Of a stretch of 24,000 nt of DNA, positions 1 through 19,053 are shown in pieces. Below the pieces are notes generated by a model. The model saw nothing but the letters and a program-made list of their open reading frames with translations, did not search any database and was not told the origin of the DNA. The position numbers and the translations under genes were made by a program. Where the stretch lies: contig JADJAH010000037.1 of assembly GCA_016704345.1 (NCBI GenBank), positions 116,417 through 140,416 of the forward strand, written 5' to 3'. The stretch is from Ignavibacteria bacterium. Its GTDB lineage: Bacteria > Bacteroidota > Ignavibacteria > Tepidaquicellales > Tepidaquicellaceae. The number at the start of each line of letters is the position of its first letter. Position 1 is the stretch's first letter.

Positions 1-254
1 TTTATCTCTCTTTTGATCTCAGGAGATTCAACGATGACATATTTCCAGGGCTGCTTATTTGCACCCGAAGGCGCTGTACTTGCAGTCATTACGGCAAGTT
101 CAAGCAGCCTTCTGTCAAACTTTTCGTCCGAAAAGAATCTCACACTTCTTCTGGAACTCATGAGTTTGTAAAACTGCTGCGCTCTTAATCTACTTTCCTC
201 GTCAGAATATCTCTGATGTACAAGGTTGATAAATCCTTCAGGTGTGTTCTTCAA
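1..254 (-). CDS. Nitroreductase-family flavoprotein, N-terminal part only (3' end runs off the window); resembles the iodotyrosine-deiodinase-like subgroup
   Basis: Absent from the supplied ORF track because it is edge-truncated. My minus-strand translation from TTG 254-252 reads (M)KNTPEGFINLVHQRYSDEESRLRAQQFYKLMSSRRSVRFFSDEKFDRRLLELAVMTASTAPSGANKQPWKYVIVESPEIKREI... The RRSVRxF ... TAPSGAxxQPW block is the N-terminal FMN-binding signature of the nitroreductase superfamily. There is an in-frame stop upstream at 368-366 and no ATG before the motif, so TTG-254 is the first canonical start. It lies 26 bp downstream of the fumC stop on the same strand. Confidence 0.7.
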   Translation of the reverse strand, partial: MKNTPEGFINLVHQRYSDEESRLRAQQFYKLMSSRRSVRFFSDEKFDRRLLELAVMTASTAPSGANKQPWKYVIVESPEIKREI

Positions 255-280
255 AATATTAAATATTCTTCCGATAAAGT

Positions 281-1687
281 TTAGAAAATGTCTTTTGCAA
301 TATCTCCAACCATCTTGCCGGCATCTACCTTTTCGGTAAACTCTGAATCCGTTAACAAGCCCAGTTCAATTGCTGCTTCGCGGAGTGTTTTGTTTTCCTT
401 ATGAGCTTTCTTGGCGATCTTAGCGGCGTTTTCATAACCTATGTGCGGATTCAATGCTGTCACAAGCATCAGCGACCGCTCAACATTTTCATTAATTTTC
501 GATATATTGGGTTCAATGCCGGATGCACAATGCTCATCAAACGATACACATGCATCTCCAAGCAATCTTGCAGAGAGAAGCGCATTGGAGATCATCATAG
601 GCTTGAATACGTTGAGTTCAAAATGACCGTTCATTCCGCCAATTGAAATGGCAACATCGTTGCCTATCACTTGAGCACAGACCATTGTCATGGCTTCAGT
701 CTGTGTGGGATTTACCTTGCCCGGCATGATTGAAGAGCCCGGTTCATTTTCAGGAATCAGTATTTCCCCTATTCCGCTGCGAGGACCTGATGACAACATT
801 CTTATGTCATTTGCAATCTTCATCAGACTAACAGCAAGTACCTTCAGAGATGAAGAGAGTTCAACTATAGCATCATTTGAAGCAAGAGCTTCAAATTTAT
901 TCGGAGCAGTTTTAAATGGAAGTCCGGTCAGCTCCGATATTATTGCGGCAACTATAACATCATAATTCTCAGGAACATTTATTCCTGTCCCTACTGCTGA
1001 TCCTCCCAAAGCCAACTCTGACAGATGCTCAAGTGAATTCTCGATTGCTTTAATTCCATGCCTCAGTTGATAAACATATCCAGAGAATTCCTGACCCAGA
1101 GTAAGAGGTGTTGCATCCATGAAGTGAGTTCTGCCAATTTTAATTATATTCTTAAAGGCCTTTGACTTCATCTCAAATGTTTTCAATAGCTGTCTTGCTC
1201 CGGGTAAAGTGACCTCAGAAACCATTTTGTAGGCTGCAATATTCATTGCTGTTGGGAATGTATCATTTGATGACTGAGACTTATTCACGTCATCATTCGG
1301 ATGCAAAGACTTTTGCTTGTCGTCCAGATTTCCTCCGCTAATCAGATGTGCCCTGTTTGCTATAACTTCATTTACGTTCATATTGCTTTGAGTGCCGGAA
1401 CCTGTTTGCCAGATTACGAGAGGAAATTCATCATCGTGTTTTCCTTCAAGAATTTCATCACAAACTTTTCCTATTTGTTCGGCTTTTTCAGCAGAAAGAA
1501 CACCGCACTTCATGTTTGCCAAAGCAGCAGCCTTCTTTAGTATTGAGAATGCATATATCACTTCCAACGGCATTCTCGAATTGCCGATCCTGAAATTTTC
1601 TTTCGATCTTTGTGTTTGTGCGCCCCAGAGTTTATCGGCAGGAACTTTGACTTCCCCCATTGTATCATGTTCGATCCTTTGTGACAT
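281..1687 (-). CDS. fumC: Class II fumarate hydratase (fumarase C)
   Basis: The 468-aa ORF carries the aspartase/fumarase superfamily signature [15 protein letters not shown]. The N-terminus ([21 protein letters not shown]) and the length are typical of FumC. ATG start at 1687. Confidence 0.95.
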
Positions 1688-1707
1688 AATATTGATTAGT
1701 TTCAGTT

Positions 1708-1748
1708 AACAAAAAACTCCGCAAAGTTTATGACTTCTTTGCGGAGTT
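1708..1748 (-). terminator. Rho-independent terminator closing the 7098->1772 secreted-protein operon
   Basis: A perfect 12-bp inverted repeat, AACTCCGCAAAG (1715-1726) / CTTTGCGGAGTT (1737-1748), encloses a 10-nt loop. On the minus-strand transcript the stem is followed by TTTTGTT. It sits 24 bp after the stop codon at 1772 and immediately before the fumC start. Confidence 0.75.
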
Positions 1749-1771
1749 GGATTAAATTTCAGTTTTCTGAT

Positions 1772-2854
1772 CTACTTGACCAGGAGCATTTTCTTTGTAT
1801 CAAGGCTGTTATTTGTTTTCAACGAATAAAAATACATACCGCTTGAAAGATCCGATGCATTAAAATCAACCGTGTAATAATTGGCTGTTCTGAATTCATT
1901 GTTTAAAATCCTTGCCACCATTTTTCCGCTCATGTCATAGACCTCAAGAGTTACCTTTGAATCATTTGGAAGTGAGAAAGAGATCTTGGTCGATGGATTG
2001 AATGGGTTTGGATAATTTTGTTTGAGTTCAAATACCTGCGGAGCACCAATCACTATTTCACTCTGAAGATTGAAGTATTCAAAATTTCCGTTGAAATCAA
2101 TCTGCTTGAGTCTGTACTGGTATTTACCAATATTCAGGTTATTGTCTTTGTAAGAATACTCAACTGTCTGATTTGAATTTCCATGACCTTCTACAAAATT
2201 TACTTTCTGCCAATCACTTGATGATAATACTTTTCTTTCAATATCAAATCCGTTGTTATTTCTTTCGCCTGTGGTAGTCCAATTCAGCGTCACATTGTTA
2301 TTTGAGACAGCTGAAGTGAATGAGCTAAGCTCAACAGGCAGCGTACCGTTGTAATTTCCATTATAGGTGCCTGATATAGTTGGCGTGAATGTTGGAGTTA
2401 CAATTTCCGATGAGCTGGCTTCCCAGATTACTTGTGCCTGAACATTCTGAAGAATGTCCAGAGTTATTGTAGCCACACGTTCGCCAAAACCATTTGCTCC
2501 CCCATCTGCCAGGACTTCAACTCCGGGCCCGGAAACATAATTGATCTGCAAGGCGACCTGTTGACCGAAAAATAGTACGGTTTCCATCGGCCCATAATTT
2601 CCGGTGCTGTATCTTGGGCTTTGATTTGAGATGACGGGATTATTCATAACCGCATCCGTGAATTGCAGTACAAATGTTGACAGTCCCATATTATAAGGAT
2701 CAGCACTTGTTCTAAGGACATAAATGTCGAAAGTAAATTTCGTCCCGGCATTTGTTATGTCAAAATTTGTGGCAGTTACTGTCGCTGTTTGTGATCTGAG
2801 ACTCGCGCCGCCGAACAACAAACATGCAAATAGAAATAGAAGAAATTTCTTCAT
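1772..2854 (-). CDS. Secreted T9SS-cargo protein: signal peptide, N-terminal ~150-aa beta-sandwich (cohesin-like, tentative), FN3-like domain, Por/T9SS C-terminal sorting domain
   Basis: 360 aa. The signal peptide is MKKFLLFLFACLLFGGASLRSQ. The central block LPVELSSFTSAVSNNNVTLNWTTTGERNNNGFDIERK...YQYRLKQIDFNGNFEY is an FN3-like module common in FCB-group surface proteins. The C-terminus NYPNPFNPSTKISFSLPNDSKVTLEVYDMSGKMVARIL...SGMYFYSLKTNN...KKMLLVK matches the T9SS C-terminal-domain pattern (TIGR04183-like). It is a paralog of the adjacent gene. Confidence 0.85.
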   Translation of the reverse strand: MKKFLLFLFACLLFGGASLRSQTATVTATNFDITNAGTKFTFDIYVLRTSADPYNMGLSTFVLQFTDAVMNNPVISNQSPRYSTGNYGPMETVLFFGQQVALQINYVSGPGVEVLADGGANGFGERVATITLDILQNVQAQVIWEASSSEIVTPTFTPTISGTYNGNYNGTLPVELSSFTSAVSNNNVTLNWTTTGERNNNGFDIERKVLSSSDWQKVNFVEGHGNSNQTVEYSYKDNNLNIGKYQYRLKQIDFNGNFEYFNLQSEIVIGAPQVFELKQNYPNPFNPSTKISFSLPNDSKVTLEVYDMSGKMVARILNNEFRTANYYTVDFNASDLSSGMYFYSLKTNNSLDTKKMLLVK

Positions 2855-2858
2855 TTCA

Positions 2859-2863
2859 CCTCC
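2859..2863 (-). promoter_or_regulatory. Canonical Shine-Dalgarno (GGAGG) for the 1772-2854 gene
   Basis: The minus-strand mRNA reads ...CGGAGGTGAAATG, placing GGAGG 4 nt before the ATG at 2854. By eye, none of the other ~20 starts in the window has a comparable SD. Confidence 0.6.
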
Positions 2864-2906
2864 GAAGGTAGTTGATTAGAAATCATTGAATTAAAATTGT
2901 TTATGA

Positions 2907-4004
2907 TCATTTTACTAAGGTCATTTTCTTTGTTTGAACTTCTTTATCGGTTCTCAATTCATAGAAATATACTCCGCTGGAAAGTGATGAGCCATTCATC
3001 GAGACTGAATAATAGTTAGCCTGCTTAAGTTCATTATCAATAAGCATTGAGATTCTTCTTCCCGAAATGTCATAAACTGACAAAGAGACTCTTGAATCAT
3101 ATGGTAAATCAAAACTGATGACAGTTGACGGATTGAACGGGTTAGGAAAGTTTTGATTCAGTGCAAAATCTTTCGGAATACCAATCTCAATTTCTGTACT
3201 AAGATTATGACACTCGTAGTTACCGTTGAAATCCAATTGTTTGAGTCTGTAAGAATATGAACCGGTTGGAAGTTGATTATCATTGTAAGTGTAATTCTTC
3301 AGATCAGACGAGTTACCACTTCCCTGAACATATCCCGCCTTGATCCAATCACCTGCTGTAGACTTTCTTTGAACTTCAAATCCTGCATTATTTTCTTCTG
3401 AACTTGTCGACCATGAAAGCTTTACAGAATTACCGTTTGAGACTGCAGAAAAGCTGCTTAGCTCAACAGGTAAAGTACTGTTGAAGAATCCGTTGTTTGT
3501 ACTTATTGCTGACTCATTCTGCGGATTAACAACAGCAGTATTTAAGTTATCCCATCTAAGGTCAGGAAGATTAAGAGCAATGATGTCAAGTTTCACAGAA
3601 GCTATCTTTTCACCAAGCCCCTGAACACCCGGATCATTTGAAACAACATCACCCGGTCCGCCGGAATTATAATACAGCTGAATTGCTACCTTGCCGCTGG
3701 AATATCCAAACGGTTGCATTTCATTGTATGAGGATGTCACACTTCCGACTGTATATTTAGGGTTGACATAAGTCAACACCGGATTTGCAAATGTTCCGGT
3801 TACAAATCTCAAAAAATAAGAAGAATTACCCATTCTGAAATCCGGAGCGCTGGTTCTCAGGGTGAAGATATCGAAATTGAACTTTGTTCCGTTTTCTGTG
3901 ATATCAAAATTCGCAATTGTGTTAGTTACATTATTTTGCGATCTCAGTGAACCTGAAAACAGAAATAGCAGAATTACGGAAATTGAAAGAATGCTTTTGC
4001 TCAT
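2907..4004 (-). CDS. Secreted T9SS-cargo protein, paralog of 1772-2854 (cohesin-like N-domain, FN3-like domain, T9SS C-terminal domain)
   Basis: 365 aa. The signal peptide MSKSILSISVILLFLFSGSLRSQ shares the SLRSQ cleavage context with its paralog. It has LPVELSSFSAVSNGNSVKLSWSTSSEENNAGFEVQRK...YSYRLKQLDFNGNYE, and the C-terminus NFPNPFNPSTVISFDLPYDSRVSLSVYDISGRRISMLI...SGVYFYELRTD...KKMTLVK. Confidence 0.85.
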   Translation of the reverse strand: MSKSILSISVILLFLFSGSLRSQNNVTNTIANFDITENGTKFNFDIFTLRTSAPDFRMGNSSYFLRFVTGTFANPVLTYVNPKYTVGSVTSSYNEMQPFGYSSGKVAIQLYYNSGGPGDVVSNDPGVQGLGEKIASVKLDIIALNLPDLRWDNLNTAVVNPQNESAISTNNGFFNSTLPVELSSFSAVSNGNSVKLSWSTSSEENNAGFEVQRKSTAGDWIKAGYVQGSGNSSDLKNYTYNDNQLPTGSYSYRLKQLDFNGNYECHNLSTEIEIGIPKDFALNQNFPNPFNPSTVISFDLPYDSRVSLSVYDISGRRISMLIDNELKQANYYSVSMNGSSLSSGVYFYELRTDKEVQTKKMTLVK

Positions 4005-4023
4005 TACACTTAATTGTTAATAC

Positions 4024-7000
4024 TTATTGAAAATTTGGTACGTTTGATGCTTTGGCAAGATTCGGAGTTATGAATCCAAAATCTGCTGATGTTACTGTTC
4101 CATTAAGGTTTAAGTCACCGTAATTATAGTTTGCCTGCAAGAGATTGTTTTGAACAACTGTATAGTCTGCTGCAGAAACGATGAATGACTTATTAGCATC
4201 ACCACTGAACATACCAAAGAATCCGCCTGACAAAGCAGCAGCTTCATCTCCAAAATACTGATTCAATCCGCTTCTAAAATCGTAAAGAGCAGAAAGTCCG
4301 TTAAGGAAAACTACATTCTTAGACATTACCGGCAAATGATTTCTATGTCCCACTACTACGTAATAATTTCCTGTTGGGACGCCTTGTATTTTTACAGGAC
4401 TTGTTCCATTAAGATCAACAATTGAACCGTCATTCTTGAGGAACGCAGCTCTTTTGCCATTTGGTACCGCTCCACCGTCCGAAGTAGCCCTCACTTCAAG
4501 ATAAATCCAATCTACAACACCGTCCGGAATGCTTGTAACACTTTCAGTACCGTTGTAATTGAACTGTGAATTACCATATGGTTGTGACAATGGAAGCAGG
4601 TTAAAGTTTTTCAAACTGATTCTCATATTACCTGCACCTATATAAGCACCTTGTAGAAGCACCTTAGTATTGATCACTGTATTCTGACTTCCAATACAAT
4701 TTTCATCTCCACCGGTAAATTCACCAAATGCATTAATGCTTGTTGTAACAAATGAATTTGTTGCCGCATTCACCGGTCCAAATGTAAGCCAGCCATTGCC
4801 ATCCCATCTTCCTCCAATAATATTTGCTTCATTACCGACAACATCTCCATCCTGATAACCAAATCTGACGGATGAAGTAAAGTTTGATATGCCTGTTTGA
4901 CTAACTGTCCAGTATCTGTTCAGATAATCAACAGAACAAGTATTATTTGGATGAACTATGTTTACTGTTTTTACATTTGCATATGCGGGAAGCGAAAGAT
5001 TCCATGACCCAAAGAATACCAGAGCAGGAGCATATCCACCGTTACCTACCGCAAAATTAAAGGATGTTATGGAATTCGGAAGAAGTGCTTTTTTCATTTC
5101 CCCTGTTCCATCAGTTCTCACATAACTTGCAATTGCCGAAGGGCTGAAGTAAGATGAATTTGGTCCCATGTAAAGATTATTAGAACCAAGACTAAGAAGT
5201 CCGTTTTGACCAAACAATAATCTGTGCAATCTTAATGAATCGGCGAGAGCAATGCCGTTCGCTCGGCTGACCTGCAGAGTTCTTAATCCACCCTGAACGG
5301 TTGTAAGATTTGTTGATGCTGAAGAACCTCCGAAGAACATATCTGAATTGAGTCCTCCAACAATTTCACCACCCGGCACAATTGCACCGAGAATACTTAG
5401 AGTATGGTCTTCGCCAATTACAATTCTGTTTGGAGTAAAATTATTTTGAACTGCAAAGTCACTTCCCATTTGAAGCGTGGCGCCTGATATTGTAAGATCT
5501 TCAAAAGTTGTTTGGCTTCCGCTATGAAGAAAACCGGCGCCAGGACTGACAAGTCTAAGATCTCTGTCTATGATTGTATTTCCGGGAATGACACCTGATG
5601 GTACATTCCAGATGGTTCCTCCACTGTTTGTTCCACTGATAGCTGAAGCTAAGTTTGGAAAGCTGACATTTCCCTGGTTGATAATGGAATGTGGAAGCGG
5701 GTTTCCTGTAGATATTGTGTTTAGAGAAGTTCTGACCAGATCAGTTGATGTTGAAAAATTGAACGCAAATCCAATTTGCGGAATAAATCCATCCAATGTT
5801 GCGTTGTTACTCATTGAAATCGTATTAGGAGATTTTCCAGTTACGGTTGTATTCGGTGGAATACCAGATCCCTGGATACCCATTCCGATAAATATACCAT
5901 CTGTTGAAGGCATGAATGAAATTATATTATTTCCGGTAGTAAGCAATCCTCCGGAAACAACTGTAGTATCAGGCACAACGCCGTTTTGCCATTTGTTGTT
6001 ATTTGCATTTATCGCACCGCCCTGATCAGTATAGTTTACGAGACCATAGACTGAGTATGTGCTAAGATCGCATTTATCAACAGTCATATTCTTCACCTGT
6101 CTGTTGAATGCAATATTCGTATCGCAATTTGTGAATGTCAATCCTCTCAAGACTACTGTATCTAATGCGGCGGGTGGATCAAACAAATCATTTCTTGCCT
6201 GTATCCAAATACCGCTTCCGGGAGATTGCCTGACGACCCTCGAATTGACAATTGAAATGTCACTGTAATCTAATCTGCTAAGCAAGTTAATGTCGATGCC
6301 TATCCAGTTATTATTAGCAGGCATAACGACGGATATATTCTCAAACGTAGAATTTGTCAGCTTTTCAAAGTAAATAGTATGACCTTGCTGCTGATTAGTT
6401 GCATTATTATCTGCAAACGAACAATGAGAGAAGTTCACATTACTTATCTGTGTTGGATTACTTCTTCTTTGAAATGCTGCAACACCCCATAATCCATTCT
6501 GTCTTACAGTAGAATTCTTCATAACCCAGCCGTCTATGCTAACAAAAGTTGGAACAAATATTCCTGCAATGCCGCTGCCGTCAAAGTTGCAAGATTCCAA
6601 GACTATGTCATTGAGCAAATCGCCATTCAATCTGAGACCGTTAACGGAACTGCTTTTTGCAAATACATTTTCCATAGTTACATACCCGGTTCTTATATCA
6701 ATGGCATCCCCTGCCGTAACATCAGCCCTGAGATTCTTAAGCACCATTCTCTCAGATTGACTGCCGCCAGCTGCACGAAGAGTCACAGTGGAATTAAATA
6801 CCGTATTGACAGTCGGTGTCGAGCCTTTCCAGGCGCCTACAACGTTGAGTCTCTTTGTTAATGTGAATCCTGCATAAGTTCCTGTGGCAACAACAATATT
6901 GTCACCGTCAGTCACAGCCGGATTGTCAATAGCAAATTGAACCGTGAGCCACGGAGTTGCTATATTCCTGGCTTGTGCCGGCGAGTTAGAATTGCTTCCT

Positions 7001-7098
7001 GTCGTTGCGTTTACGTAATAAGTAGCCGCATTTACGGAAGCAGTGAAAATTAAAAAGGCTATTATAGCCGAAAAGGAAAAGTGTAGAAGATTTTTCAT
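4024..7098 (-). CDS. Large secreted right-handed beta-helix-type protein with a C-terminal dockerin-like double EF-hand; no T9SS tail
   Basis: 1024 aa. The signal peptide is MKNLLHFSFSAIIAFLIFTASVNA/AT. The N-terminus YYVNATTGSNSNSP...PWLTVQFAIDNPAVTDGDNIVVATGTYAGFTLTKRLNVVGA is the classic opening of parallel beta-helix (PbH1) proteins, and N/G/S/T-rich repeats follow. Near the C-terminus is GNYYVVVGHRNHLPVMS, followed by two Ca-loop-like segments, DANKSFIVSAAD and DLNLNGTVTSAD. The protein ends ...NVPNFQ with no Por C-terminal-domain pattern. Confidence 0.8.
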   Translation of the reverse strand: MKNLLHFSFSAIIAFLIFTASVNAATYYVNATTGSNSNSPAQARNIATPWLTVQFAIDNPAVTDGDNIVVATGTYAGFTLTKRLNVVGAWKGSTPTVNTVFNSTVTLRAAGGSQSERMVLKNLRADVTAGDAIDIRTGYVTMENVFAKSSSVNGLRLNGDLLNDIVLESCNFDGSGIAGIFVPTFVSIDGWVMKNSTVRQNGLWGVAAFQRRSNPTQISNVNFSHCSFADNNATNQQQGHTIYFEKLTNSTFENISVVMPANNNWIGIDINLLSRLDYSDISIVNSRVVRQSPGSGIWIQARNDLFDPPAALDTVVLRGLTFTNCDTNIAFNRQVKNMTVDKCDLSTYSVYGLVNYTDQGGAINANNNKWQNGVVPDTTVVSGGLLTTGNNIISFMPSTDGIFIGMGIQGSGIPPNTTVTGKSPNTISMSNNATLDGFIPQIGFAFNFSTSTDLVRTSLNTISTGNPLPHSIINQGNVSFPNLASAISGTNSGGTIWNVPSGVIPGNTIIDRDLRLVSPGAGFLHSGSQTTFEDLTISGATLQMGSDFAVQNNFTPNRIVIGEDHTLSILGAIVPGGEIVGGLNSDMFFGGSSASTNLTTVQGGLRTLQVSRANGIALADSLRLHRLLFGQNGLLSLGSNNLYMGPNSSYFSPSAIASYVRTDGTGEMKKALLPNSITSFNFAVGNGGYAPALVFFGSWNLSLPAYANVKTVNIVHPNNTCSVDYLNRYWTVSQTGISNFTSSVRFGYQDGDVVGNEANIIGGRWDGNGWLTFGPVNAATNSFVTTSINAFGEFTGGDENCIGSQNTVINTKVLLQGAYIGAGNMRISLKNFNLLPLSQPYGNSQFNYNGTESVTSIPDGVVDWIYLEVRATSDGGAVPNGKRAAFLKNDGSIVDLNGTSPVKIQGVPTGNYYVVVGHRNHLPVMSKNVVFLNGLSALYDFRSGLNQYFGDEAAALSGGFFGMFSGDANKSFIVSAADYTVVQNNLLQANYNYGDLNLNGTVTSADFGFITPNLAKASNVPNFQ

Positions 7099-7313
7099 AT
7101 TTTTCTATCAACTTAAGTTTTTGTTCCAGTTTATAAGGGCATGACATTGAATCCTGTGAAACCATTTTTAGTACATTGAGAATCAATAGCTCGTGTTCTG
7201 TCTTTCATTCAATTTGAATTGCAAAATACCTTAAACAATTACAAAATTCAACGAAAAGTTAAACTATTTTCGAATGATATACACTTTAATGATTTAATTT
7301 AATTTAAACCCAT

Positions 7314-7335
7314 TCCTAACAAAATCCTAACAAAA
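7314..7335. repeat. Perfect 2 x 11 bp tandem direct repeat TCCTAACAAAA in a divergent intergenic region
   Basis: TCCTAACAAAA occurs at 7314-7324 and again at 7325-7335, read directly. It lies inside the 400-bp AT-rich gap between the divergent starts at 7098 (-) and 7499 (+). The function is unknown. Confidence 0.9.
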
Positions 7336-7498
7336 CACCCAACAGCTGATTTATTTTATACTGGCAAATCAACACTCAAAAGTTGTAATAGCAAGAATCC
7401 CCAATCGTTATCATCCATTTCTTTTGAAGGGCATCCCAAATTGCAATTTCTTTAGATGCCTATATTGGCTAATTTACCAAAATCGAAAAATAATAGTC

Positions 7499-8473
7499 AT
7501 GAAACAGAACATTTTAACATCCGTGAAAGGCTTCCTTCATAATACAATTGATTATGCGGGGTTATTCCCGCCGGCTTCTCTAAATCTTGAAGATTCCTTT
7601 GACAACTTTGTTGAATATTCAAATGGCTCTTACAATTGGATGCTTTCTAAATTCATATGCCCATTCAGAAAGACCAAAGACCTTTCTTTGCTGCCCGGAT
7701 TCAAGTCTTCAACACAGAAAATACGATTGTCACTCCTCTCTGCTTCGTCTCTGAAGACAGATGAATTTCTGCTATTATTCAAAGATGACATTTTAAGTTA
7801 TAGAAAATTGCCTGATGAGTTTCATGACAAATCTATTTTTGAAACAATTGAATTAAAATTTCCGCTTGAACTTGTAGAAAGGAATTCGAAAGACAGTATC
7901 AGAATTTTTCTTGACAGCTTGTCTGAAATAGTTAAGGAACATTTTGATCACCGAATTTTCATATTTTGTGAATTACCACTGATTGGAGATTTCGATCATA
8001 ATCTGAAGAACACCGTTAAGGAAATTTGCGAGCACAATGAGGCTTTCAACGATGCCGGCTTTAAGCTTAGAACAGGAGGCACTGATCCTTCTGATATTCC
8101 TTCACCGGACATATTGGTTTCCTCGATCAGGCAATGTCTTGTTCACAATGTTACATTAAAATTCACAGCGGGTATGCATCATCCCATAAGACATCTGGAT
8201 AAAGGTATGAATGCAAAGATGCATGGATTTGTAAATGTCTTCGGAGCTGGCATACTGGCATTTCGTCATACAATTTCGGATCGCGAACTCAGGGAAATGA
8301 TCAGCGATGAAGATCCTGCCAATTTCAAATTCAGTTATGATGCTTTTGAATGGAGAGAATGGAAGAGCGATACAGAAGAAATTCACGGCGCGAGAAACGG
8401 TTTGGTTCTGTCTTTCGGAAGTTGTAGTTTTGATGAGCCTGTTGAAGATCTTAAAAAACTTCATCTTATTTAA
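7499..8473 (+). CDS. Conserved hypothetical protein (possible TIM-barrel or metal-dependent enzyme), function unknown
   Basis: The ORF track starts at TTG 7424. I prefer ATG 7499 (MKQNILTSVKGFLHNTIDYAGLFPPA...), giving 324 aa. There is no signal peptide. Internal motifs are FKLRTGG, KFTAGMHHPIRH, HGFVNVFGAG and a C-terminal SFGSCSFDEPVEDL. I could not assign a family with confidence. Confidence 0.7.
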   Translation: MKQNILTSVKGFLHNTIDYAGLFPPASLNLEDSFDNFVEYSNGSYNWMLSKFICPFRKTKDLSLLPGFKSSTQKIRLSLLSASSLKTDEFLLLFKDDILSYRKLPDEFHDKSIFETIELKFPLELVERNSKDSIRIFLDSLSEIVKEHFDHRIFIFCELPLIGDFDHNLKNTVKEICEHNEAFNDAGFKLRTGGTDPSDIPSPDILVSSIRQCLVHNVTLKFTAGMHHPIRHLDKGMNAKMHGFVNVFGAGILAFRHTISDRELREMISDEDPANFKFSYDAFEWREWKSDTEEIHGARNGLVLSFGSCSFDEPVEDLKKLHLI

Positions 8474-8507
8474 AAGTAATTTTCTAAGAACATTTTATAT
8501 TTTAATC

Positions 8508-9767
8508 ATGCAATCATTTCTGAAGATCAGTCCCGATTCGCATTTTCCAATTCAAAACATCCCGTTCGGAATATTCACGAAGCTTAATGACAATAAGCCA
8601 AGAGCGGCTTCGCGGATTGGAGATCATGTCATTGATCTTTCTATGCTGGAGAAAAAAGGTTATCTGAAGGAATTTATTCCCGAAGAAGCCGATGAAGTCT
8701 TTTCCGGAAAATCTCTTAACAAGTTTATGGGATTAGGAAAAAGTGTTACTTCAGATGTTCGCAAGAGGATACAGACTCTTCTGCGAGATGATTGTGATGA
8801 AATAAAGGAAAAAGAATCATTTCTAAAAAAACTCCTGATTCCTATTGAAGATTGCAGAATGCTATTGCCTGTTGAGATTGGAGACTATACAGATTTTTAT
8901 TCGTCAAAAGAACACGCAACAAATGTGGGTATAATGTTCAGAGGAAAGGAGAATGCGCTTATGCCCAACTGGCTGCATCTTCCGGTTGCATACCACGGAA
9001 GAGCAAGCTCAATAGTTGTCAGCGGAACTGATGTAACAAGGCCGAAGGGTCAGACTAAAGCAGATGATGAAGATCTTCCCAAGTTCGGACCGAGCAAGCT
9101 TTTGGATTTCGAACTTGAGATGGGATTCTTTATTGGACAAGGAAATGATTTAGGCAAAGCTGTTCCGGTGAAGAAAGCGCAGGATCATATATTTGGATTT
9201 GTGCTTGTTAACGACTGGAGTGCACGCGACATTCAAAAATGGGAATATGTGCCTCTTGGTCCGTTCCTTGCAAAAAATTTTGCTACATCAATTTCTCCCT
9301 GGATCGTTACTCTTGAAGCACTTGAGCCATTCAAAGTTGAGAGACAAAAACAAGATCCCAAACCGCTCCCCTATCTTAAGAGCTCAGGAGAATGGCATTA
9401 TGACATCAACCTTGAAGTTAGCATCCGTTGTGCAGGAACAAACGATTTTATTCCAATATCAAAATCGAATTTCAAACATCTGTATTGGGATATATGTCAG
9501 CAGTTAGCTCATCATACTGTTACGGGATGCAACCTGCGTACGGGAGATCTTTTGGCATCCGGAACAATAAGCGGTCCTTCAAGCGATTCTTTCGGCAGCC
9601 TGCTTGAACTAACATGGAAAGGAACCCAACCGCTTAATCTTGCATCCGGTGAGACGCGGAGATTTCTTGTTGATGGGGACACTTTGAAGATTACAGGTTG
9701 GTGTCAAGGCAAGAGCTATAAAATTGGATTCGGCGAAGTGACCGGAAAAATTCTTCCAACTAATTGA
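8508..9767 (+). CDS. fahA: Fumarylacetoacetase (fumarylacetoacetate hydrolase, EC 3.7.1.2), full-length type with the N-terminal FAH domain
   Basis: The ORF track starts at 8307, overlapping the previous gene. The ATG at 8508 gives 419 aa beginning MQSFLKISPDSHFPIQNIPFGIFT...PRAASRIGDHVIDLS, which is collinear with the start of animal and bacterial FAH. Other matching segments are DYTDFYSSKEHATNVG, LPVAYHGRASSIVVSGT, FELEMGFFIG, FGFVLVNDWSARDIQKWEYVPLGPF and GDLLASGTISG. Confidence 0.9.
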   Translation: MQSFLKISPDSHFPIQNIPFGIFTKLNDNKPRAASRIGDHVIDLSMLEKKGYLKEFIPEEADEVFSGKSLNKFMGLGKSVTSDVRKRIQTLLRDDCDEIKEKESFLKKLLIPIEDCRMLLPVEIGDYTDFYSSKEHATNVGIMFRGKENALMPNWLHLPVAYHGRASSIVVSGTDVTRPKGQTKADDEDLPKFGPSKLLDFELEMGFFIGQGNDLGKAVPVKKAQDHIFGFVLVNDWSARDIQKWEYVPLGPFLAKNFATSISPWIVTLEALEPFKVERQKQDPKPLPYLKSSGEWHYDINLEVSIRCAGTNDFIPISKSNFKHLYWDICQQLAHHTVTGCNLRTGDLLASGTISGPSSDSFGSLLELTWKGTQPLNLASGETRRFLVDGDTLKITGWCQGKSYKIGFGEVTGKILPTN

Positions 9768-10671: not shown

Positions 10672-11739
10672 ATGGATTCAGATACGCAGAAAGTAAGACT
10701 CACACAAATGGTAAAAGCCGCCGGTTGTGCCGCAAAACTTTTTCCAAACATTCTTTCAGATGCATTGCACGACATAGACTGGCTGCAAAATGAGAATGTG
10801 CTTGTTGGTTTTGAAGGCAGGGATGATGCCGGAGTGTACAAAATTTCAGACGAGCTAGCATTGATACACACAACAGATTTTTTTACGCCTGTTGTTGATG
10901 ACCCGTATATATTCGGACAGATAGCCGCAACTAACGCTTTGAGTGATGTGTATGCCATGGGCGGCACTCCGGTCAGCGCGCTAAACATAGTTGCATTTCC
11001 CCAAACGGAGGATGTCTCAATATTGAAGGAGATTCTTCGCGGAGGCGCTGACAAAACACGGGAGGCAAACACTGTTATCATTGGCGGTCATTCAATTGAT
11101 ATTCCGAATATTGCATATGGACTCGCAGTAACGGGAACAATCAATCCCAATAAAATAAAGGGCAACAATTGCGCACGGCCCGGCGATGTTCTTATTATTA
11201 CAAAAGCGCTAGGTACCGGCATTCTGAATAATGCTGTAAAGTTCGCAGCCTTAAGCAATGGCAGATTAGATGCTTTGCTGTCATCGATGCTCAGGCTCAA
11301 TATGAATGCATCTCAATGTATGCAGAAGCATAATGCAAATGCATGTACTGACATTACCGGTTTTGGTTTAGCCGGTCATGCAATGCAGCTTGCAAAAGCA
11401 AGCAGAGTTATTTTGAGTTTTCAAGCTGCCGCTATCCCCGTTCTCGACGGCGTGTTTGAAGGTATTGCTGCAAACATGCTGACGAGAGGCGACAAGTCAA
11501 ACAGAGATTACACAAAACATTCCGTGAAGACCAAAGGCATTGTTGACAAAGCAATTGATCATCTCATTTACGATCCGCAGACTTCAGGCGGATTGCTAAT
11601 CTCTGTTCCCGAAAAACATTCCCGACAGTTAATTCAAGAACTCAGAGATTCCGGAGATGAAGTATCTGCTATTGTTGGAGAAATATTACCCGCTATGAAT
11701 GAAGAGGAAATCGGCAATATCATATTCAGTTATGAATGA
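10672..11739 (+). CDS. selD: Selenide, water dikinase (selenophosphate synthetase), Cys-type
   Basis: 355 aa. The N-terminal active-site loop is LTQMVKAAGCAAKL, with Cys at the Sec/Cys position. It has the PurM-like/AIR-synthase-related fold motifs DDAGVY, TTDFFTPVVDDPYIFGQIAATNALSDVYAMGG and GGHSID. Confidence 0.92.
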   Translation: MDSDTQKVRLTQMVKAAGCAAKLFPNILSDALHDIDWLQNENVLVGFEGRDDAGVYKISDELALIHTTDFFTPVVDDPYIFGQIAATNALSDVYAMGGTPVSALNIVAFPQTEDVSILKEILRGGADKTREANTVIIGGHSIDIPNIAYGLAVTGTINPNKIKGNNCARPGDVLIITKALGTGILNNAVKFAALSNGRLDALLSSMLRLNMNASQCMQKHNANACTDITGFGLAGHAMQLAKASRVILSFQAAAIPVLDGVFEGIAANMLTRGDKSNRDYTKHSVKTKGIVDKAIDHLIYDPQTSGGLLISVPEKHSRQLIQELRDSGDEVSAIVGEILPAMNEEEIGNIIFSYE

Positions 11740-12946
11740 ATTTAAAGGAGACAAGCAGCTATTTGAATTCATAAGGTCGGCAAACATTTCACAAACACCT
11801 TCTCTTAAAGAACTCCTATCCAATTATCAATCAGATACAATTATTATCTCCGATGTTCTGTCAAAGTTGAGACAACACAATGACAGACTATTGTTGATCG
11901 ATGCACGTTCACAGGCAGAATTTGAAGATTCTGAAATTCCCGGGGCAGTAAATTTTCCGGTTCTTACAAATACTGAAAGACACAATGTCGGCTTGATATA
12001 CAAGAAATATTCACAAGCCGCAGCATTGTGGCTTGCATTGAAGTATGCGCAGCCAAAAGCCGATGATCTCAACAAAATCTTAACCGGCCACAATGCAGCT
12101 GAAAGAGAAATAGTCGTTTACTGCTGGCGCGGAGGAGGAAGAAGCGGATATCTTTCTAAAATGATCAGTGATCTCGGATATAAAGTTTCAACACTTAAGG
12201 GAGGACACAAGTCATTCAGAAGATACGTCAACGAATATTTCTCAAGGAAGAATTTTCATTCCGGCTTGATTGAGCTTACCGGAATGACCGGCAGCGGTAA
12301 AACTATGCTGCTCAAAGAGACCGGCAAATCTATTCCCATAATTGATTTGGAAAATTCAGCTCTGCACTATTCAAGTTTACTTGGAAGGATACCTTATGAC
12401 ATCAAGTCAATCCCCGAAGTTAAAAATCAGGCGGCATTTGAGAACAGGGTTTTTGCGGATGTGTGTTTGAATAGAATGGAGAAATCAGAAGAAGAAGAGA
12501 TTTATTTGATCGAAAGTGAAAGCAGGAAAGTCGGGGACTTCATAATACCTGAGATGCTATTTAATAGAATGCTGACAGCACCCGTTATCAGAGTTGACTC
12601 AGCCGTAGAGTACAGAGTGAAGCGATTAAACAGAGACTACTTCGGCGAGAATAATGAAGGCATAGAACCTATGTTGAATATTATGAAATCAAAGGAAACA
12701 TTCTTCAGACAACAATTGAGTTCATCAACTTACAAAGAGCTTATTGGAAATTTAGAAAGAGGTGAAACGGAAAAGTTCACAGAGATTATGCTGATCAAAT
12801 ATTATGATGTGAAATATAAAGACAAAGGGAAAATACCTGTCGCAGTTGTTAATGCAGATCATGCTCAAGATGCAGTGAAAGAAATATTGGAAATATATCG
12901 AAAGAACAAGCAGAGTCGGAGGAATGCATCCTCGAACTCTGCTTAG
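11732..12946 (+). CDS. selU: tRNA 2-selenouridine synthase
   Basis: It has an N-terminal rhodanese domain with the active-site loop VVYCWRGGGRSG, followed by the P-loop GMTGSGKT. This architecture is diagnostic for SelU/MnmH(YbbB). The start is ambiguous: ATG 11732 (MNEFKGD..., overlapping the selD stop by 8 nt) or ATG 11699 (track). Either start implies translational coupling with selD. Confidence 0.88.
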   Translation: MNEFKGDKQLFEFIRSANISQTPSLKELLSNYQSDTIIISDVLSKLRQHNDRLLLIDARSQAEFEDSEIPGAVNFPVLTNTERHNVGLIYKKYSQAAALWLALKYAQPKADDLNKILTGHNAAEREIVVYCWRGGGRSGYLSKMISDLGYKVSTLKGGHKSFRRYVNEYFSRKNFHSGLIELTGMTGSGKTMLLKETGKSIPIIDLENSALHYSSLLGRIPYDIKSIPEVKNQAAFENRVFADVCLNRMEKSEEEEIYLIESESRKVGDFIIPEMLFNRMLTAPVIRVDSAVEYRVKRLNRDYFGENNEGIEPMLNIMKSKETFFRQQLSSSTYKELIGNLERGETEKFTEIMLIKYYDVKYKDKGKIPVAVVNADHAQDAVKEILEIYRKNKQSRRNASSNSA

Positions 12947-12951
12947 ATAAA

Positions 12952-15900
12952 TTAGAATACAGGTTCTGTTAACGGTACAAACGATCTCACTATTAACTCT
13001 TCCTGAGTTTCAATATGGACACTAAGTGAACCCGGTGCTGGACTTGAACTTTCTTCCTTGGTCAATCTGAATAATCTCTGACCATTACCAAGACTGTCTT
13101 TCAGCCTAAGCGAAAGGAATCCCCAAGCACCCATGTTTGCCGGCTCTTCCTGAACCCACACGACTTCTTTAGCATTCTTGTATCCTTGCAAAACATTTCT
13201 CACTTTATCTGTATCGTATGGATAGTACTGCTCAAGCCTGATAATTGCTGTGTCAGAAATCTTTTTTGCTTCCCTGTATTTTGACAGGTCATAAAAAACT
13301 TTACCGCTTGTTAACAAGATCCTTTCCGTTTTCAGTTTGTCAGCATTTGCATCATCAATAATTTCCATGAAGGTCTGTTCAACAAAATCTTTCTTATAAG
13401 ATCTTGCTTCGGGAAGCCTTAGCAAACTCTTCGGAGTCATAATCACCAAAGGTCTTTTCTTGTGTTGCTTAGACTGACGTCTCAGTAAATGAAATAATTG
13501 TGCAGGTGTTGTAGGATTACAGACAATCATGTTGTCCTCAGCACAGAGCGTAAGAAATCTTTCCAGTCGTGCGCTTGAATGCTCGGGTCCCTGTCCTTCC
13601 TGTCCGTGAGGAAGCATCAAAACAATATTACATGGCAAACTCCACTTTGCATAAGAACTCGATATGAAATTATCTATGATAACCTGACCTGCGTTTGCAA
13701 AGTCGCCAAACTGCGCTTCCCATACCACCAGTGTGATAGGATCTGCTGTGGAATAGCCGTATTCAAATCCTAAGACTGCAGCTTCAGACAAAAGACTGTC
13801 AAGCGGTTCTATCCATGAAACCCCGGGAGCGATGTTATTCATTGTAATTATCTCTTGTCCCGTCTCAGCGTCAGTCAGTACAATGTGTCTTTGTGAGAAA
13901 GTACCTCGCGCACTGTCCTGTCCGCTCAGCCGGATTGGAATTCCATCCTGCATGAGACTTCCGAAAGCAAGCGCTTCACCGAATGCCCAATCTACTCCTG
14001 CATCAGTTGAAATAAAATCCTTTCTTGAATCAACGAACTTCTTGAGTTTAGGATGAAGAGTAAAATTTTCAGGAAGCGTAGTAATTGAGTTTACTATTGC
14101 ATTCAGTTTCTCTTCAGGCACATGTGTTTCTACATGAGACTCGGCAGCTTCTATCTCTTCTTCAGTAACAGCAAGCGGAATGTCGGTTTTAAATTTCTGG
14201 ACTTTTTCATGCCCTTCACTCATTTTCTCATAAATTCGAGTTTCGATTTCTTTCAATACCTCCGGAGTTACAACTTTTTCTTTCAACAACCGTTTCTCAT
14301 AGATCTCCTTTACCGAAGGATGATTCCTTATTTTTTTATACATCAGCGGCTGAGTGAATGCCGGCTCATCTGCTTCATTGTGGCCCAGCCTTCTGTATCC
14401 CCATACATCAACAACCACATCACTATTATACTTCATCCTATATTCAAAGGCGAGTTTGGTTACAAGCAAAGTTGCTTCAGGATCATCACCGTTAACATGA
14501 AAGATCGGAGCCTGTATCATCTTTGCCACATCCGAACAATACTGCGACGAGCGCGCTTCCTCAGGAGTAGTTGTGAAACCAATCTGATTATTAATTATGA
14601 TATGTATTGTTCCACCGGTTCTGTAGCCGTTGAGTTGAGAGAGATTGAGTGTCTCTGCTACAATCCCTTCACCCGCAACAGCAGCATCTCCGTGTATGAG
14701 AACAGGTATGACTCGATTCCGTGAGTTGTCATCCATCCATGTCTGCTTTGCCCTGACAATTCCTTCAACTACCGGATTTACAAATTCCAGATGGGACGGA
14801 TTTGACGCAACGGATACGATTATCTCTTTATCAGATTTTGTCTTATAATTACCTGTTGCGCCAAGATGATATTTTACATCGCCGGAACCTTGTGCAGACG
14901 CGGGATCAATATAACCTTCAAACTCAGAGAAGATGGCAGACATGGATTTTCCGATAATATTAGCAAGCACATTCAATCTTCCGCGGTGAGCCATGCCCAT
15001 AACAAGTTCATGTACAGAACTCTCCGAAGCACAGTTGAGAAGAAAATCCAGCAATGCAATTATAGTTTCAGAACCTTCAAGCGAGAATCTTTTGTGCCCC
15101 ACATATTTCTTATCAATAAACTTTTCAAAATTTTCAGCTTCCGAAAGTTTGAAGAGTATATGCTTCTTTTCTTCAACTGTGAATGAAGGCATATTCATAT
15201 TCATCTCAATTTGTCCTTCAAGCCATCTTTTCTTTTCCGGATCTTGAATATGCTTATATTCAACGCCTATCTTATCGCAATATGTTTGATAGAGAATATT
15301 CAAAATTTCACGAAGAGTCGCAGTTCTCTTACCCGCTAAGCCGTCCGTTATAAATTCTCTGTCGTAATCCCAAACTGTGAATCCGTATTTAGAAGGATCA
15401 AGCTCAGGGTGATACTGAGCTTTAGATTCCAGTGGATCCAGATTCGCAAGAAGATGCCCGCGGACCCTGAACATATTGATTAGTTGAATAGCCTTTGCCT
15501 GTTTTTCAATTTCTTCAAGATTGTCAATTTTGCCAAGATCATCTGCGTTCTTATCGAGAAACCATTTTACGGGTTTCATGGGTATCTGCAGTCCCTCGAA
15601 TATCTCTTCATAAAAATTATCATCGCCTTTGAGCAAGCCGCTCAACTTCTGTAAAAATACACCTGACTCTGCGCCCTGTATGATTCTGTGATCGTAGGTG
15701 CTTGTGATATTCATTACTTTGCTGATGCCGATCGTAGTGATGATCTCATTTGTAACTGCCTGATACTCTGCGGGATAATCTATTGCGCCTGTTGCAATAA
15801 TTGCGCCTTGCCCAAGCATCAGCCTCGGTGTTGATGCTACCGTGCCAAGCGTTCCGGGATTGGTAAGAGAAATTGTAGTTCCCTGAAAATCACTGACCTC

Positions 15901-16581
15901 AATTTTATTACTGCGCGCCTTCTTTATTATTTCATCGTAAGCATCGAAGTACTCGCCGAAGTTCATGAGATTTGCCTTCTTGATATTAGGAACTATGAGT
16001 GATCGGCTGCCATCTTTTTTTTCAAGATCAACGGCCAGTCCCAGATTCACGTCGGGCTTTTTGATAACGTTCGGTTCTCCGTTTATTACAGTATATGCAT
16101 TGTTCATGACGGGCACTGAGTTTATACCCTTTATGATTGCCCAGCCTATGATGTGTGTAAAAGAAACCTTGCGTCCGTTTTTTTTCTTGAGATATTCGTT
16201 TATCAATCTCCTGTTTTCCTCAAGAACTTTTACCGGTATGGTTCTGAAAGTAGTAGCAGTAGGAATAGTAAGACTTGCATTCATGTTTTCTATGATCTTG
16301 GCGCCAACACCTCTTATGACTTCAGGTTGCTCATCTCCTACCGGCTGGGGAATATTGATTTGTGCACGCGAATATCCGTTGCCTGAAACAGGTTTTGTCT
16401 CCGTTGATAATTTTTTGTCATTCTTATTAAGCTCGAGTTCCTTGAACAGGGTCTTCCAGTTGTCACTTACAGATCCGGGATCTTTCTGATATTCATCGAG
16501 AAGTTCGAGCACGTACCAGGTATTGAGTCCGAATTCAGAGATCTTTTCCTGTTGCTCAGTAGATAAGTCTTCTAATTTCAT
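12952..16581 (-). CDS. Multifunctional 2-oxoglutarate dehydrogenase: E2-type acyltransferase catalytic domain fused N-terminally to an E1o (SucA) ThDP enzyme (OdhA/Kgd-type)
   Basis: 1209 aa. The order is an N-terminal 2-oxoglutarate-DH helix (FGLNTWYVLELLDEYQKDPGSVSDNW), then a 2-oxoacid-DH acyltransferase core ending in the catalytic STYDHRIIQGAESG, then E1o motifs FRVRGHLLANLDPL, HRGRLNVLANI, GDVKYHLG, NPSHLE, HGDAAVAGEG and PHGQEGQGPEHSSARLERFL. I could not find a lipoyl (biotin-like) domain. Confidence 0.9.
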   Translation of the reverse strand: MKLEDLSTEQQEKISEFGLNTWYVLELLDEYQKDPGSVSDNWKTLFKELELNKNDKKLSTETKPVSGNGYSRAQINIPQPVGDEQPEVIRGVGAKIIENMNASLTIPTATTFRTIPVKVLEENRRLINEYLKKKNGRKVSFTHIIGWAIIKGINSVPVMNNAYTVINGEPNVIKKPDVNLGLAVDLEKKDGSRSLIVPNIKKANLMNFGEYFDAYDEIIKKARSNKIEVSDFQGTTISLTNPGTLGTVASTPRLMLGQGAIIATGAIDYPAEYQAVTNEIITTIGISKVMNITSTYDHRIIQGAESGVFLQKLSGLLKGDDNFYEEIFEGLQIPMKPVKWFLDKNADDLGKIDNLEEIEKQAKAIQLINMFRVRGHLLANLDPLESKAQYHPELDPSKYGFTVWDYDREFITDGLAGKRTATLREILNILYQTYCDKIGVEYKHIQDPEKKRWLEGQIEMNMNMPSFTVEEKKHILFKLSEAENFEKFIDKKYVGHKRFSLEGSETIIALLDFLLNCASESSVHELVMGMAHRGRLNVLANIIGKSMSAIFSEFEGYIDPASAQGSGDVKYHLGATGNYKTKSDKEIIVSVASNPSHLEFVNPVVEGIVRAKQTWMDDNSRNRVIPVLIHGDAAVAGEGIVAETLNLSQLNGYRTGGTIHIIINNQIGFTTTPEEARSSQYCSDVAKMIQAPIFHVNGDDPEATLLVTKLAFEYRMKYNSDVVVDVWGYRRLGHNEADEPAFTQPLMYKKIRNHPSVKEIYEKRLLKEKVVTPEVLKEIETRIYEKMSEGHEKVQKFKTDIPLAVTEEEIEAAESHVETHVPEEKLNAIVNSITTLPENFTLHPKLKKFVDSRKDFISTDAGVDWAFGEALAFGSLMQDGIPIRLSGQDSARGTFSQRHIVLTDAETGQEIITMNNIAPGVSWIEPLDSLLSEAAVLGFEYGYSTADPITLVVWEAQFGDFANAGQVIIDNFISSSYAKWSLPCNIVLMLPHGQEGQGPEHSSARLERFLTLCAEDNMIVCNPTTPAQLFHLLRRQSKQHKKRPLVIMTPKSLLRLPEARSYKKDFVEQTFMEIIDDANADKLKTERILLTSGKVFYDLSKYREAKKISDTAIIRLEQYYPYDTDKVRNVLQGYKNAKEVVWVQEEPANMGAWGFLSLRLKDSLGNGQRLFRLTKEESSSPAPGSLSVHIETQEELIVRSFVPLTEPVF

Positions 16582-18649: not shown

Positions 18650-18650
18650 T

Positions 18651-19025: not shown

Positions 19026-19053
19026 TGTTGTAACAAATTTTATCTGTCAATAT

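Follow-up and report, generated by a model that had tools for sequence, protein, structure and literature searches.

A candidate type II cohesin–dockerin docking operon with type IX secretion anchors in an Ignavibacteria bacterium

A 24,000-nucleotide stretch of DNA from an Ignavibacteria bacterium (GenBank assembly GCA_016704345.1, contig JADJAH010000037.1, positions 116,417 to 140,416), called the window in what follows, carries a three-gene operon on its minus strand. The operon encodes one large protein that ends in an X-module and a dockerin (together X-Doc) and two small proteins that end in a type IX secretion system (T9SS) sorting domain. We propose that it is a two-component type II (X-dockerin) cohesin–dockerin docking system adapted to a diderm bacterium with a T9SS, and assign this reading a probability of about 0.72. 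The large protein would be the docked cargo, and the N-terminal domain of the small proteins, probably a highly diverged cohesin, would be its receptor. A two-component docking interpretation was already put forward in a first-pass annotation of the sequence, and it is supported by the results described here; of the checks proposed there that were run, all but the cohesin HMM search spoke in its favor.

The three co-directional open reading frames (ORFs) run from 7098..4024, 4004..2907 and 2854..1772 (all coordinates refer to the window) and code for proteins of 1024, 365 and 360 amino acids, with intergenic gaps of 19 and 52 bp. The cargo gene (4024..7098) encodes a signal peptide, a putative beta-helix region, middle domains and a C-terminal X-dockerin without a T9SS tail. 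Anchor gene A (2907..4004) encodes a signal peptide, a cohesin-like domain, a spacer domain and a T9SS type A tail, and anchor gene B (1772..2854) a paralog of identical architecture. An intrinsic terminator on the same strand (1711..1748; 12-bp stem, 10-nt loop and U-run) ends the three-gene unit, between anchor gene B and the downstream fumarase gene (1687..281). The hairpin has a free energy of −17.4 kcal/mol and a z-score of −5.5, and 0 of 200 shuffled sequences folded equally well; a consensus terminator scan missed it because the loop limit of the scan was 8 nt. The ORF coordinates and the hairpin thus confirm the tightly spaced, cleanly terminated trio described at first pass. In the public GenBank records of this Ignavibacteria metagenome-assembled genome (MAG), which contain the exact sequences, the cargo is a 'hypothetical protein' (MBK6507552.1) and both anchors are named only 'T9SS type A sorting domain-containing protein'.

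The C-terminus of the cargo is predicted to be a type-II-like X-module–dockerin dyad that forms one rigid unit. Alignment of orthologues and distant relatives placed the conserved C-terminal unit at about 215 residues (aa 810-1024), not 60, with the motifs KVFLEGAY, VVDWV.LE.R and HRNHLPVMS followed by two Ca-loop segments and an SNVP end. The X part (4219..4671, minus strand; approximately aa 810-960) is a beta-sandwich according to the alignment, an AlphaFold2 (AF2) model and Foldseek, reads KVLLQGAY, VVDW.YLE.R and HRNHLPVMS at these motifs, and matched no Pfam family. The dockerin (4027..4218, minus strand; aa 961-1024) consists of two Ca-loop plus helix segments, GDANKSFIVSAAD and GDLNLNGTVTSAD, and the conserved SNVPN end. 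The sole Pfam match of the cargo was to Dockerin_1 (PF00404), at aa 966-1010, where the score of 24.4 bits exceeds the cut-off of 22.9. Among nine cargo orthologues seven matched this family at 14-24 bits and two were above the cut-off, while X-Doc relatives reached up to 35.1 bits (P0188). Ligand positions 1, 3, 5 and 12 of the Ca loops are occupied by D967-N969-S971-D978 and D995-N997-N999-D1006. Across 28 orthologues D967, D978, D995, N997 and D1006 do not vary, and N969 and S971 hardly do.

The AF2 model of cargo aa 806-1024 (219 residues, 75 sequences in the alignment) had a mean predicted local distance difference test score (pLDDT) of 97.8 and a predicted template modeling score (pTM) of 0.93. 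In the model, the beta-sandwich packs against two helices (model residues 172-179 and 199-208), one after each Ca loop. When the model was compared with the PDB using Foldseek, the ten best matches were all type II X-module–dockerin dyads, with E-values from 5.8e-5 to 2.5e-3. The dyads matched include 4u3s_B, 4wi0_B, 2b59_B, 3kcp_A, 4fl4, 5g5d_B, 5k39_B and 5m0y_B, and the alignments covered about 162 columns spanning both the X part and the dockerin. The eleventh match was the type II dockerin 2y3n_B, with a template modeling (TM) score of 0.75 and a root-mean-square deviation of 1.5 Å, beyond which the E-values leap above 0.05.

The two anchor proteins are paralogs with 48% identity over the full length (E 1e-111). 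Their T9SS tails scored above the cut-offs of both PF18962 (Por_Secre_tail, cut-off 27; A 42.5 bits, B 49.5 bits) and TIGR04183 (cut-off 23; A 43.5 bits, B 49.3 bits), in agreement with the initial description of tandem paralogs with T9SS C-terminal domains. The type A sorting domains correspond to aa 286-365 of A (2910..3149, minus strand) and aa 281-360 of B (1775..2014, minus strand). Hydrophobic N-termini are visible in both sequences, so that A and B have the signal peptide and tail that characterize T9SS type A substrates. No SLH domain was found in the anchors by Pfam; with T9SS type A tails at the C-termini, the arrangement differs from the classical cellulosome with its sortase or SLH anchoring, as had been pointed out at the outset. 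Close relatives have two anchor gene copies and relatives of 55-65% identity have one. Between the N-domain and the tail lies a spacer domain (A, about aa 176-285, 3150..3479; B, 2015-2344; both minus strand) that begins with an LPVELSSF motif; it is conserved between the two proteins and has no Pfam assignment. The same spacer type also precedes the T9SS tail in the unrelated proteins P0045 and P0047.

The N-domain of both anchors is, as judged from structure prediction, a hidden and highly diverged cohesin. It covers about aa 24-175 of A (3480..3935, minus strand) and about aa 23-170 of B (2345..2788, minus strand), which is homologous to the modeled domain of A (family cohN hidden Markov model (HMM), E 1.3e-40). 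A word-index homology search with the N-domain gave one match only. A profile built from the domains of A and B and one match was then run exhaustively against 1.84 billion representative proteins and yielded 68 relatives, a small family of mostly 360-385-residue proteins with the same architecture. The AF2 model of the N-domain of A, based on 42 family members (pLDDT 95.3, pTM 0.90), is a beta-sandwich jelly-roll that can be superposed on solved cohesins. In a Foldseek search of the PDB with this model, the first ca. 26 matches were almost all cohesins of types I, II and III, with E-values of 2.3e-5 to 4e-3. They include the type I cohesins 2ccl_A (E 2.3e-5), 1ohz_A (TM 0.64), 1anu and 1aoh, the type II and III structures 5lxv and 2zf9, 2jh2 and 2vo8 from Clostridium perfringens, and the archaeal 2xdh. 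Carbohydrate-binding module (CBM) domains of families CBM3 and CBM2 ranked lower in the same list, with E-values of 1e-3 to 1e-2. A best match to a CBM or another immunoglobulin-type (Ig) fold, the outcome that the first-pass annotation had named as incompatible with its proposal, thus did not occur, and its guess of a cohesin fold stood.

At the sequence level, the link between the window family and Pfam Cohesin (PF00963, curated cut-off 24.1 bits) is transitive. A domain encoded right after an X-Doc gene in locus L040 scored 38.5 bits (E 2.5e-10) with the un-iterated HMM of the window family and 32.0 bits with Pfam Cohesin, above the cut-off. Two further domains reached 19.4 bits (L061b) and 16.8 bits (L053b) with Pfam Cohesin, both under the cut-off. 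Assignment of the N-domain as a CBM was rejected, given that cohesins outrank CBMs in the fold search and that one family member passes the Cohesin cut-off.

To what extent the two modules belong together was examined by gene linkage. In Ignavibacteria MAGs about 45 homologues of the cargo are present, with 55-90% identity, and in the orthologous loci one or two cohesin-like T9SS genes always come after the large gene, at 17-32 bp; the large gene never occurs without a T9SS-tailed cohesin-like gene directly after it, which is the outcome that the proposed synteny check called for. Fumarase, selD and further genes are syntenic as well, so the pairing among orthologues alone could reflect a conserved neighborhood. 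In a reverse test, family members were found by the N-domain profile alone and their contigs were inspected. In all five loci with DNA (L006, L008, L089, L090 and L091) a co-directional gene ending in X-Doc was present 12-20 bp upstream, and the three of these upstream genes that were scored gave 219-230 bits with the X-Doc HMM. The cargoes all differ: a polysaccharide deacetylase, a protein that contains Fn3, a 1090-aa protein, a 793-aa three-cohesin protein and a 1620-aa protein that has a CarboxypepD_reg domain besides a cohesin. A sixth cohesin-like family member has a matching layout, judged from gene layout alone. The distant cohesin-like genes are therefore preceded by unrelated cargoes that share only the C-terminal X-dockerin module.

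The forward test started from the X-Doc alignment, which in a search of species-representative genomes matched at least 589 times, among Ignavibacteria, Bacteroidota, Calditrichia, Cloacimonadota and others. We kept 80 X-Doc loci, 70 of them non-orthologous and 62 with enough downstream sequence. These 80 loci contain 117 X-Doc ORFs of 233-1895 aa, often in tandem arrays, with the module nearly always at the extreme C-terminus, and 53 ORFs that matched an iterated cohesin-like HMM. Of the 27 cohesin-like ORFs in the non-orthologous loci, 26 come immediately after an X-Doc gene; of the loci with enough downstream sequence, 25 of 62 have a cohesin-like gene after the X-Doc gene. A T9SS tail was found in none of the 117 X-Doc ORFs, versus 37 of 40 cohesin-like ORFs, the other three being truncated or partial. 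In another set of X-Doc proteins 3 of 165 had a tail. For the window cargo itself, Pfam and NCBIfam searches found no T9SS C-terminal domain. The division of labor originally read from a single operon, with the dockerin on a cargo that lacks an anchor and the anchor on the small proteins, is thus also seen across the locus set. The linkage is between modules, not between whole genes, and we rejected a mere conserved neighborhood as the explanation for the adjacency: the pairing persists with other cargo and other neighbors.

Some relatives show arrangements that, as far as domain content can tell, match those known from cellulosomes. Among 546 X-Doc proteins the cargo domains include subtilase, BNR repeats and GEVED. 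In two proteins, P0183 and P0186, a Pfam-verified cohesin (34.6 and 27.8 bits) and X-Doc share one chain, as expected for adaptors, and in P0071, P0050, P0080, P0182 and P0173 a window-type cohesin-like domain is joined to X-Doc. Locus L090 seems to hold a full scaffoldin-to-anchor hierarchy: a protein of 793 aa (2607-4988, plus strand), which contains three stretches of Pfam cohesin (63.4 bits) and ends in X-Doc, is followed after 12 bp by a window-type cohesin-like T9SS anchor (5001-6104, plus strand). The gene before the three-cohesin protein in this locus also ends in a T9SS tail. In L091 the anchor gene (5001-6119, plus strand) lies between two X-Doc proteins, the upstream 1620-aa cohesin and CarboxypepD_reg protein (123-4985, plus strand) and a downstream 1140-aa Peptidase_M6 protein (6257-9679, plus strand). 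In a Cloacimonadota MAG (L083), an X-Doc gene is followed by one that encodes a T9SS-tailed, cohesin-like protein of 1427 aa.

Three or four X-Doc genes that differ in their N-terminal regions stand in tandem in L022, L028, L040 and L041, and a single cohesin-like T9SS gene ends the array in L040 and L061. Most of the loci L035, L052, L056, L067, L074 and L087 have a T9SS-tailed protein of 365-415 aa after the X-Doc gene that escaped even the iterated cohesin-like HMM; for L087 the custom tail HMM, too, missed the gene that follows X-Doc. These proteins may be more diverged sockets. Exceptions to the terminal position of the module, with an internal X-Doc followed by about 200 or more residues, are P0046 (1020 aa), where the internal stretch is X-Doc-like, L073 4866-6287 and L086 2763-6299.

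In the docking system that we propose, the cargo would be exported by Sec to the periplasm, with its rigid X-dockerin dyad as a Ca-dependent plug. The type A C-terminal domains would direct anchors A and B through the T9SS. PorU attachment is established for T9SS type A substrates, and by analogy the PorU sortase would then link the anchors covalently to the cell surface. Their diverged cohesin N-domain would serve as a Ca-dependent socket for the X-dockerin. The cargo, which has a plug and no anchor, would be held by the anchors, which have socket and anchor, and would thus be displayed on the surface; binding might occur on the surface or already in the periplasm.

Several observations weigh against this interpretation. 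Pfam Cohesin gave no match at E ≤ 1 for the N-domains of A and B or for the 42 family members. Searched against PDB sequences, the N-domain family profile did not find a cohesin, the best match being an Ig domain with an E-value of 0.23, and a second family profile (A5) found none either; a phmmer search of PDB sequences with anchor A likewise gave no cohesin. Comparison by hhalign of the family alignment with the Pfam-verified cohesins of P0183 and P0186 was not significant (E 0.25 and 0.36). Of the HMM-based expectations in the first-pass annotation, those for the dockerin and the T9SS tails were borne out at curated cut-offs; no window protein matched the cohesin HMM, and the strand-motif parallels to clostridial cohesins that it had drawn had no statistical support in sequence comparison with Pfam-verified cohesins. 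The fold similarity of the N-domain to cohesins is moderate (TM 0.45-0.64), and the cohesin jelly-roll topology is common to CBM3 and CBM2. No cohesin-like neighbor was detectable in 37 of the 62 X-Doc loci. A search of the PDB for a function of the cargo, with the single sequence and with a profile of 28 orthologues, returned only the dockerin and weak noise. Finally, surface docking needs an extra step because a Sec-exported cargo without a tail has no established outer-membrane route.

A different role of the same pair would be outer-membrane crossing. The cohesin-like T9SS substrate would bind the X-dockerin of the cargo in the periplasm and lend its sorting domain in trans, and the T9SS would export the complex, or the cargo would be handed over at the translocon; surface display would follow. 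The X-Doc proteins have Sec signals and essentially never a T9SS tail, while their partners nearly always have one, which fits such a mechanism well, as does the observation that several X-Doc genes may precede a single anchor gene (L040 and L061). The tight co-directional spacing of 12-32 bp resembles that of type B T9SS cargo and helper gene pairs. That folded as well as very large proteins leave by the T9SS through the wide barrel of SprA (PMC9251779) also speaks for this role. Against this stand the many X-Doc genes without an adjacent partner, the formation of classical cohesin–dockerin pairs outside the cell and a literature search that gave no precedent for trans-export by the T9SS. We regard export in trans as the main role of the pair as unlikely, yet worth serious consideration.

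Much less probable, in our judgment very improbable, is that the products are independent surface proteins. The N-domain would then be a cohesin-shaped carbohydrate-binding or adhesin domain, the X-dockerin a Ca-binding stabilizing or glycan-binding module, and the adjacency a matter of co-regulation of envelope proteins. For many dockerin-like modules outside cellulosomes no cohesin partner is known, and this view would accommodate them together with the lack of a cohesin HMM match in the window proteins, the CBM3/CBM2 folds in the Foldseek list and the synteny of the whole neighborhood among orthologues. It does not explain that the adjacency outlasts a full exchange of cargo and genomic neighborhood, or that 26 of 27 cohesin-like ORFs are located exactly after an X-Doc gene. 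Furthermore, the top of the fold list is formed by cohesins and not by CBMs, one family member exceeds the Pfam Cohesin cut-off, and true scaffoldins and adaptors bear the same X-Doc. Surface docking through an X-dockerin plug and a T9SS-anchored cohesin socket is therefore the reading that we prefer.

The closest known system is the anchoring of clostridial cellulosomes by type II cohesins and X-dockerins, as in the C. thermocellum CipA XDoc with SdbA, Orf2p and OlpB and the A. cellulolyticus ScaA XDoc with ScaB (PDB 2b59, 3kcp, 4u3s, 5g5d and 5m0y). In both cases a rigid dyad of X-module and dockerin is located at the extreme C-terminus of the docked protein, and the cohesin is part of a protein with a cell-surface anchoring module, here the T9SS tail of a protein that would bind the X-dockerin. 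Structures from these clostridial systems are the best structural matches for both window partners, and the multi-cohesin scaffoldin of L090, which ends in X-Doc and precedes an anchor, suggests a similar hierarchy. Differences concern the anchor, which is a T9SS type A domain in a diderm where monoderms use SLH repeats or a sortase motif, and the X-Doc module, which occurs directly on diverse cargo as well as on scaffoldins and has a larger X part with its own conserved motifs and no Pfam family. Unlike its clostridial counterparts, the cohesin is too diverged for PF00963, and the window cargo is not a recognized glycoside hydrolase. The classical cellulosome definition does not apply to the window operon: each window anchor has one cohesin-like domain, multi-cohesin scaffoldins being present in other loci only (L090), and the anchoring is not of the SLH or sortase LPXTG type found on monoderm walls.

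A single-cohesin anchor, covalently attached to the envelope, that receives X-Doc partners is also known from Ruminococcus flavefaciens, where the XDoc modules of CttA and ScaB bind the type III cohesin of ScaE (PDB 2zf9 and 5lxv); type III cohesins are among the fold matches of the N-domain. ScaE differs in phylum and sequence families, and in its attachment by sortase via LPXTG, whereas PorU-mediated attachment to anionic lipopolysaccharide (A-LPS) would apply here. Comparison with T9SS type B cargo, which has cognate adjacent PorP/SprF-like helper genes, is also instructive. There too a dedicated partner gene, required for T9SS handling, comes after the cargo gene, as may be the case here, but the partner in our operon is a type A substrate with a cohesin fold and not an outer-membrane beta-barrel, and the cargo has no recognized T9SS domain.

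The general idea of a T9SS-anchored cohesin scaffold is not new, since a precedent inferred from genomes exists in Cloacimonadota. For 'Ca. Stygibacter', a predicted cellulosome-like complex of dockerin-bearing enzymes and a cohesin scaffoldin with a T9SS-type C-terminal domain was described (Williams et al. 2021, PMC8542988), the scaffoldin being one 3755-aa protein with tandem Pfam-detectable cohesins and CBMs. Like the present system it is known from genomes alone and couples a cohesin scaffold to a T9SS-type domain; small single-cohesin anchors, an X-Doc module, gene adjacency and a spread across the Fibrobacterota–Chlorobiota–Bacteroidota (FCB) superphylum are not described in the portions of that paper considered here. 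Use of the cohesin–dockerin pair beyond cellulose degradation and with varied cargo is shared with non-cellulosomal examples, such as the C. perfringens GH84 and GH33 toxin complexes (PDB 2jh2, 2vo8 and 2o4e), the A. fulgidus cohesin (2xdh) and dockerins of rumen Bacteroidetes (PMC6487960). Such structures are among the fold matches as well, but these examples lack T9SS anchoring and a conserved X-Doc/anchor gene pair. In rumen surveys the scattered Bacteroidetes dockerins were interpreted as transfers from Firmicutes (PMC6487960). The literature that we searched contained no description of small T9SS anchors with a single cohesin, of this X-Doc module or of an FCB-wide gene pairing.

The N-terminal part of the cargo begins with a Sec signal peptide (7027..7098, minus strand; aa 1-24, MKNLLHFSFSAIIAFLIFTASVNA|A), read from the sequence, with likely cleavage after VNA. 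A right-handed beta-helix region (5989..6756, minus strand; about aa 115-370) is suggested by PF13229 matches in orthologues of 55-65% identity: with a cut-off of 25.9, P0008 scored 26.1 bits (aa 117-255), P0040 25.8 and P0039 23.1. A Pfam search gave no direct beta-helix match in the window cargo itself. Accordingly, of the earlier description of the large protein as a beta-helix protein with a dockerin-like tail and without a T9SS domain, the tail (24.4 bits) and the missing T9SS domain were upheld, whereas the beta-helix is seen in the orthologues and not in the window protein. No glycoside hydrolase or CBM match was obtained for the cargo in Pfam searches or in PDB sequence and profile searches.

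The 325-bp intergenic stretch 5′ of the cargo gene (7099..7423, minus strand) presumably contains the promoter; only weak sigma-70-like matches were found in it. It is bordered by a divergent ORF of 349 aa (7424-8473, plus strand) without a Pfam match, and relatives L003-L005 have a gene for a protein of 324-326 aa at this position. Genes for a selenophosphate synthetase of the AIRS/AIRS_C type (10672-11739) and a rhodanese/SelU-like protein (11699-12946), both on the plus strand and overlapping by 41 nt, also adjoin the operon in relatives. Further along the window a gene on the minus strand (12952-16581) encodes a 1209-aa 2-oxoglutarate dehydrogenase in which an N-terminal 2-oxoacid acyltransferase (E2) catalytic domain is fused to E1o; such OdhA/Kgd-type E2-E1o fusions are familiar mainly from Actinobacteria. 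Two PaaA/PaaC-family genes for phenylacetate-CoA oxygenase subunits (17885-20040, minus strand) and a gene of the beta-lactamase fold (21827-23080) are apparently unrelated to the docking operon.

The same X-Doc/cohesin gene pairing recurs with many cargoes across the Bacteroidota–Ignavibacteria–Calditrichia group. The analysis brings to light a cohesin family that escapes the HMM libraries now in use and whose members carry public names such as T9SS-tail protein or hypothetical protein only. Because the public libraries miss this family, cohesin–dockerin systems in Gram-negative FCB bacteria are probably much commoner than surveys based on PF00963 suggest. The clostridial logic of an X-dockerin that is received by an anchoring cohesin would thus have a T9SS-based counterpart, and the X-Doc/anchor gene-pair signature is simple enough for automatic mining. 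As a compact plug and socket with T9SS anchoring, such a pair could also serve surface display in Bacteroidota. For the T9SS field, the results raise the question by which route hundreds of Sec-exported X-Doc proteins without a C-terminal sorting domain reach the surface. If the anchors indeed carried their cargo through the T9SS, this would be a new mode of T9SS substrate recruitment and a new use of the cohesin–dockerin pair on the intracellular side, and X-Doc, matched at least 589 times in species-representative genomes, would then act as a modular and widespread tag for 'secretion by proxy' in the FCB superphylum.

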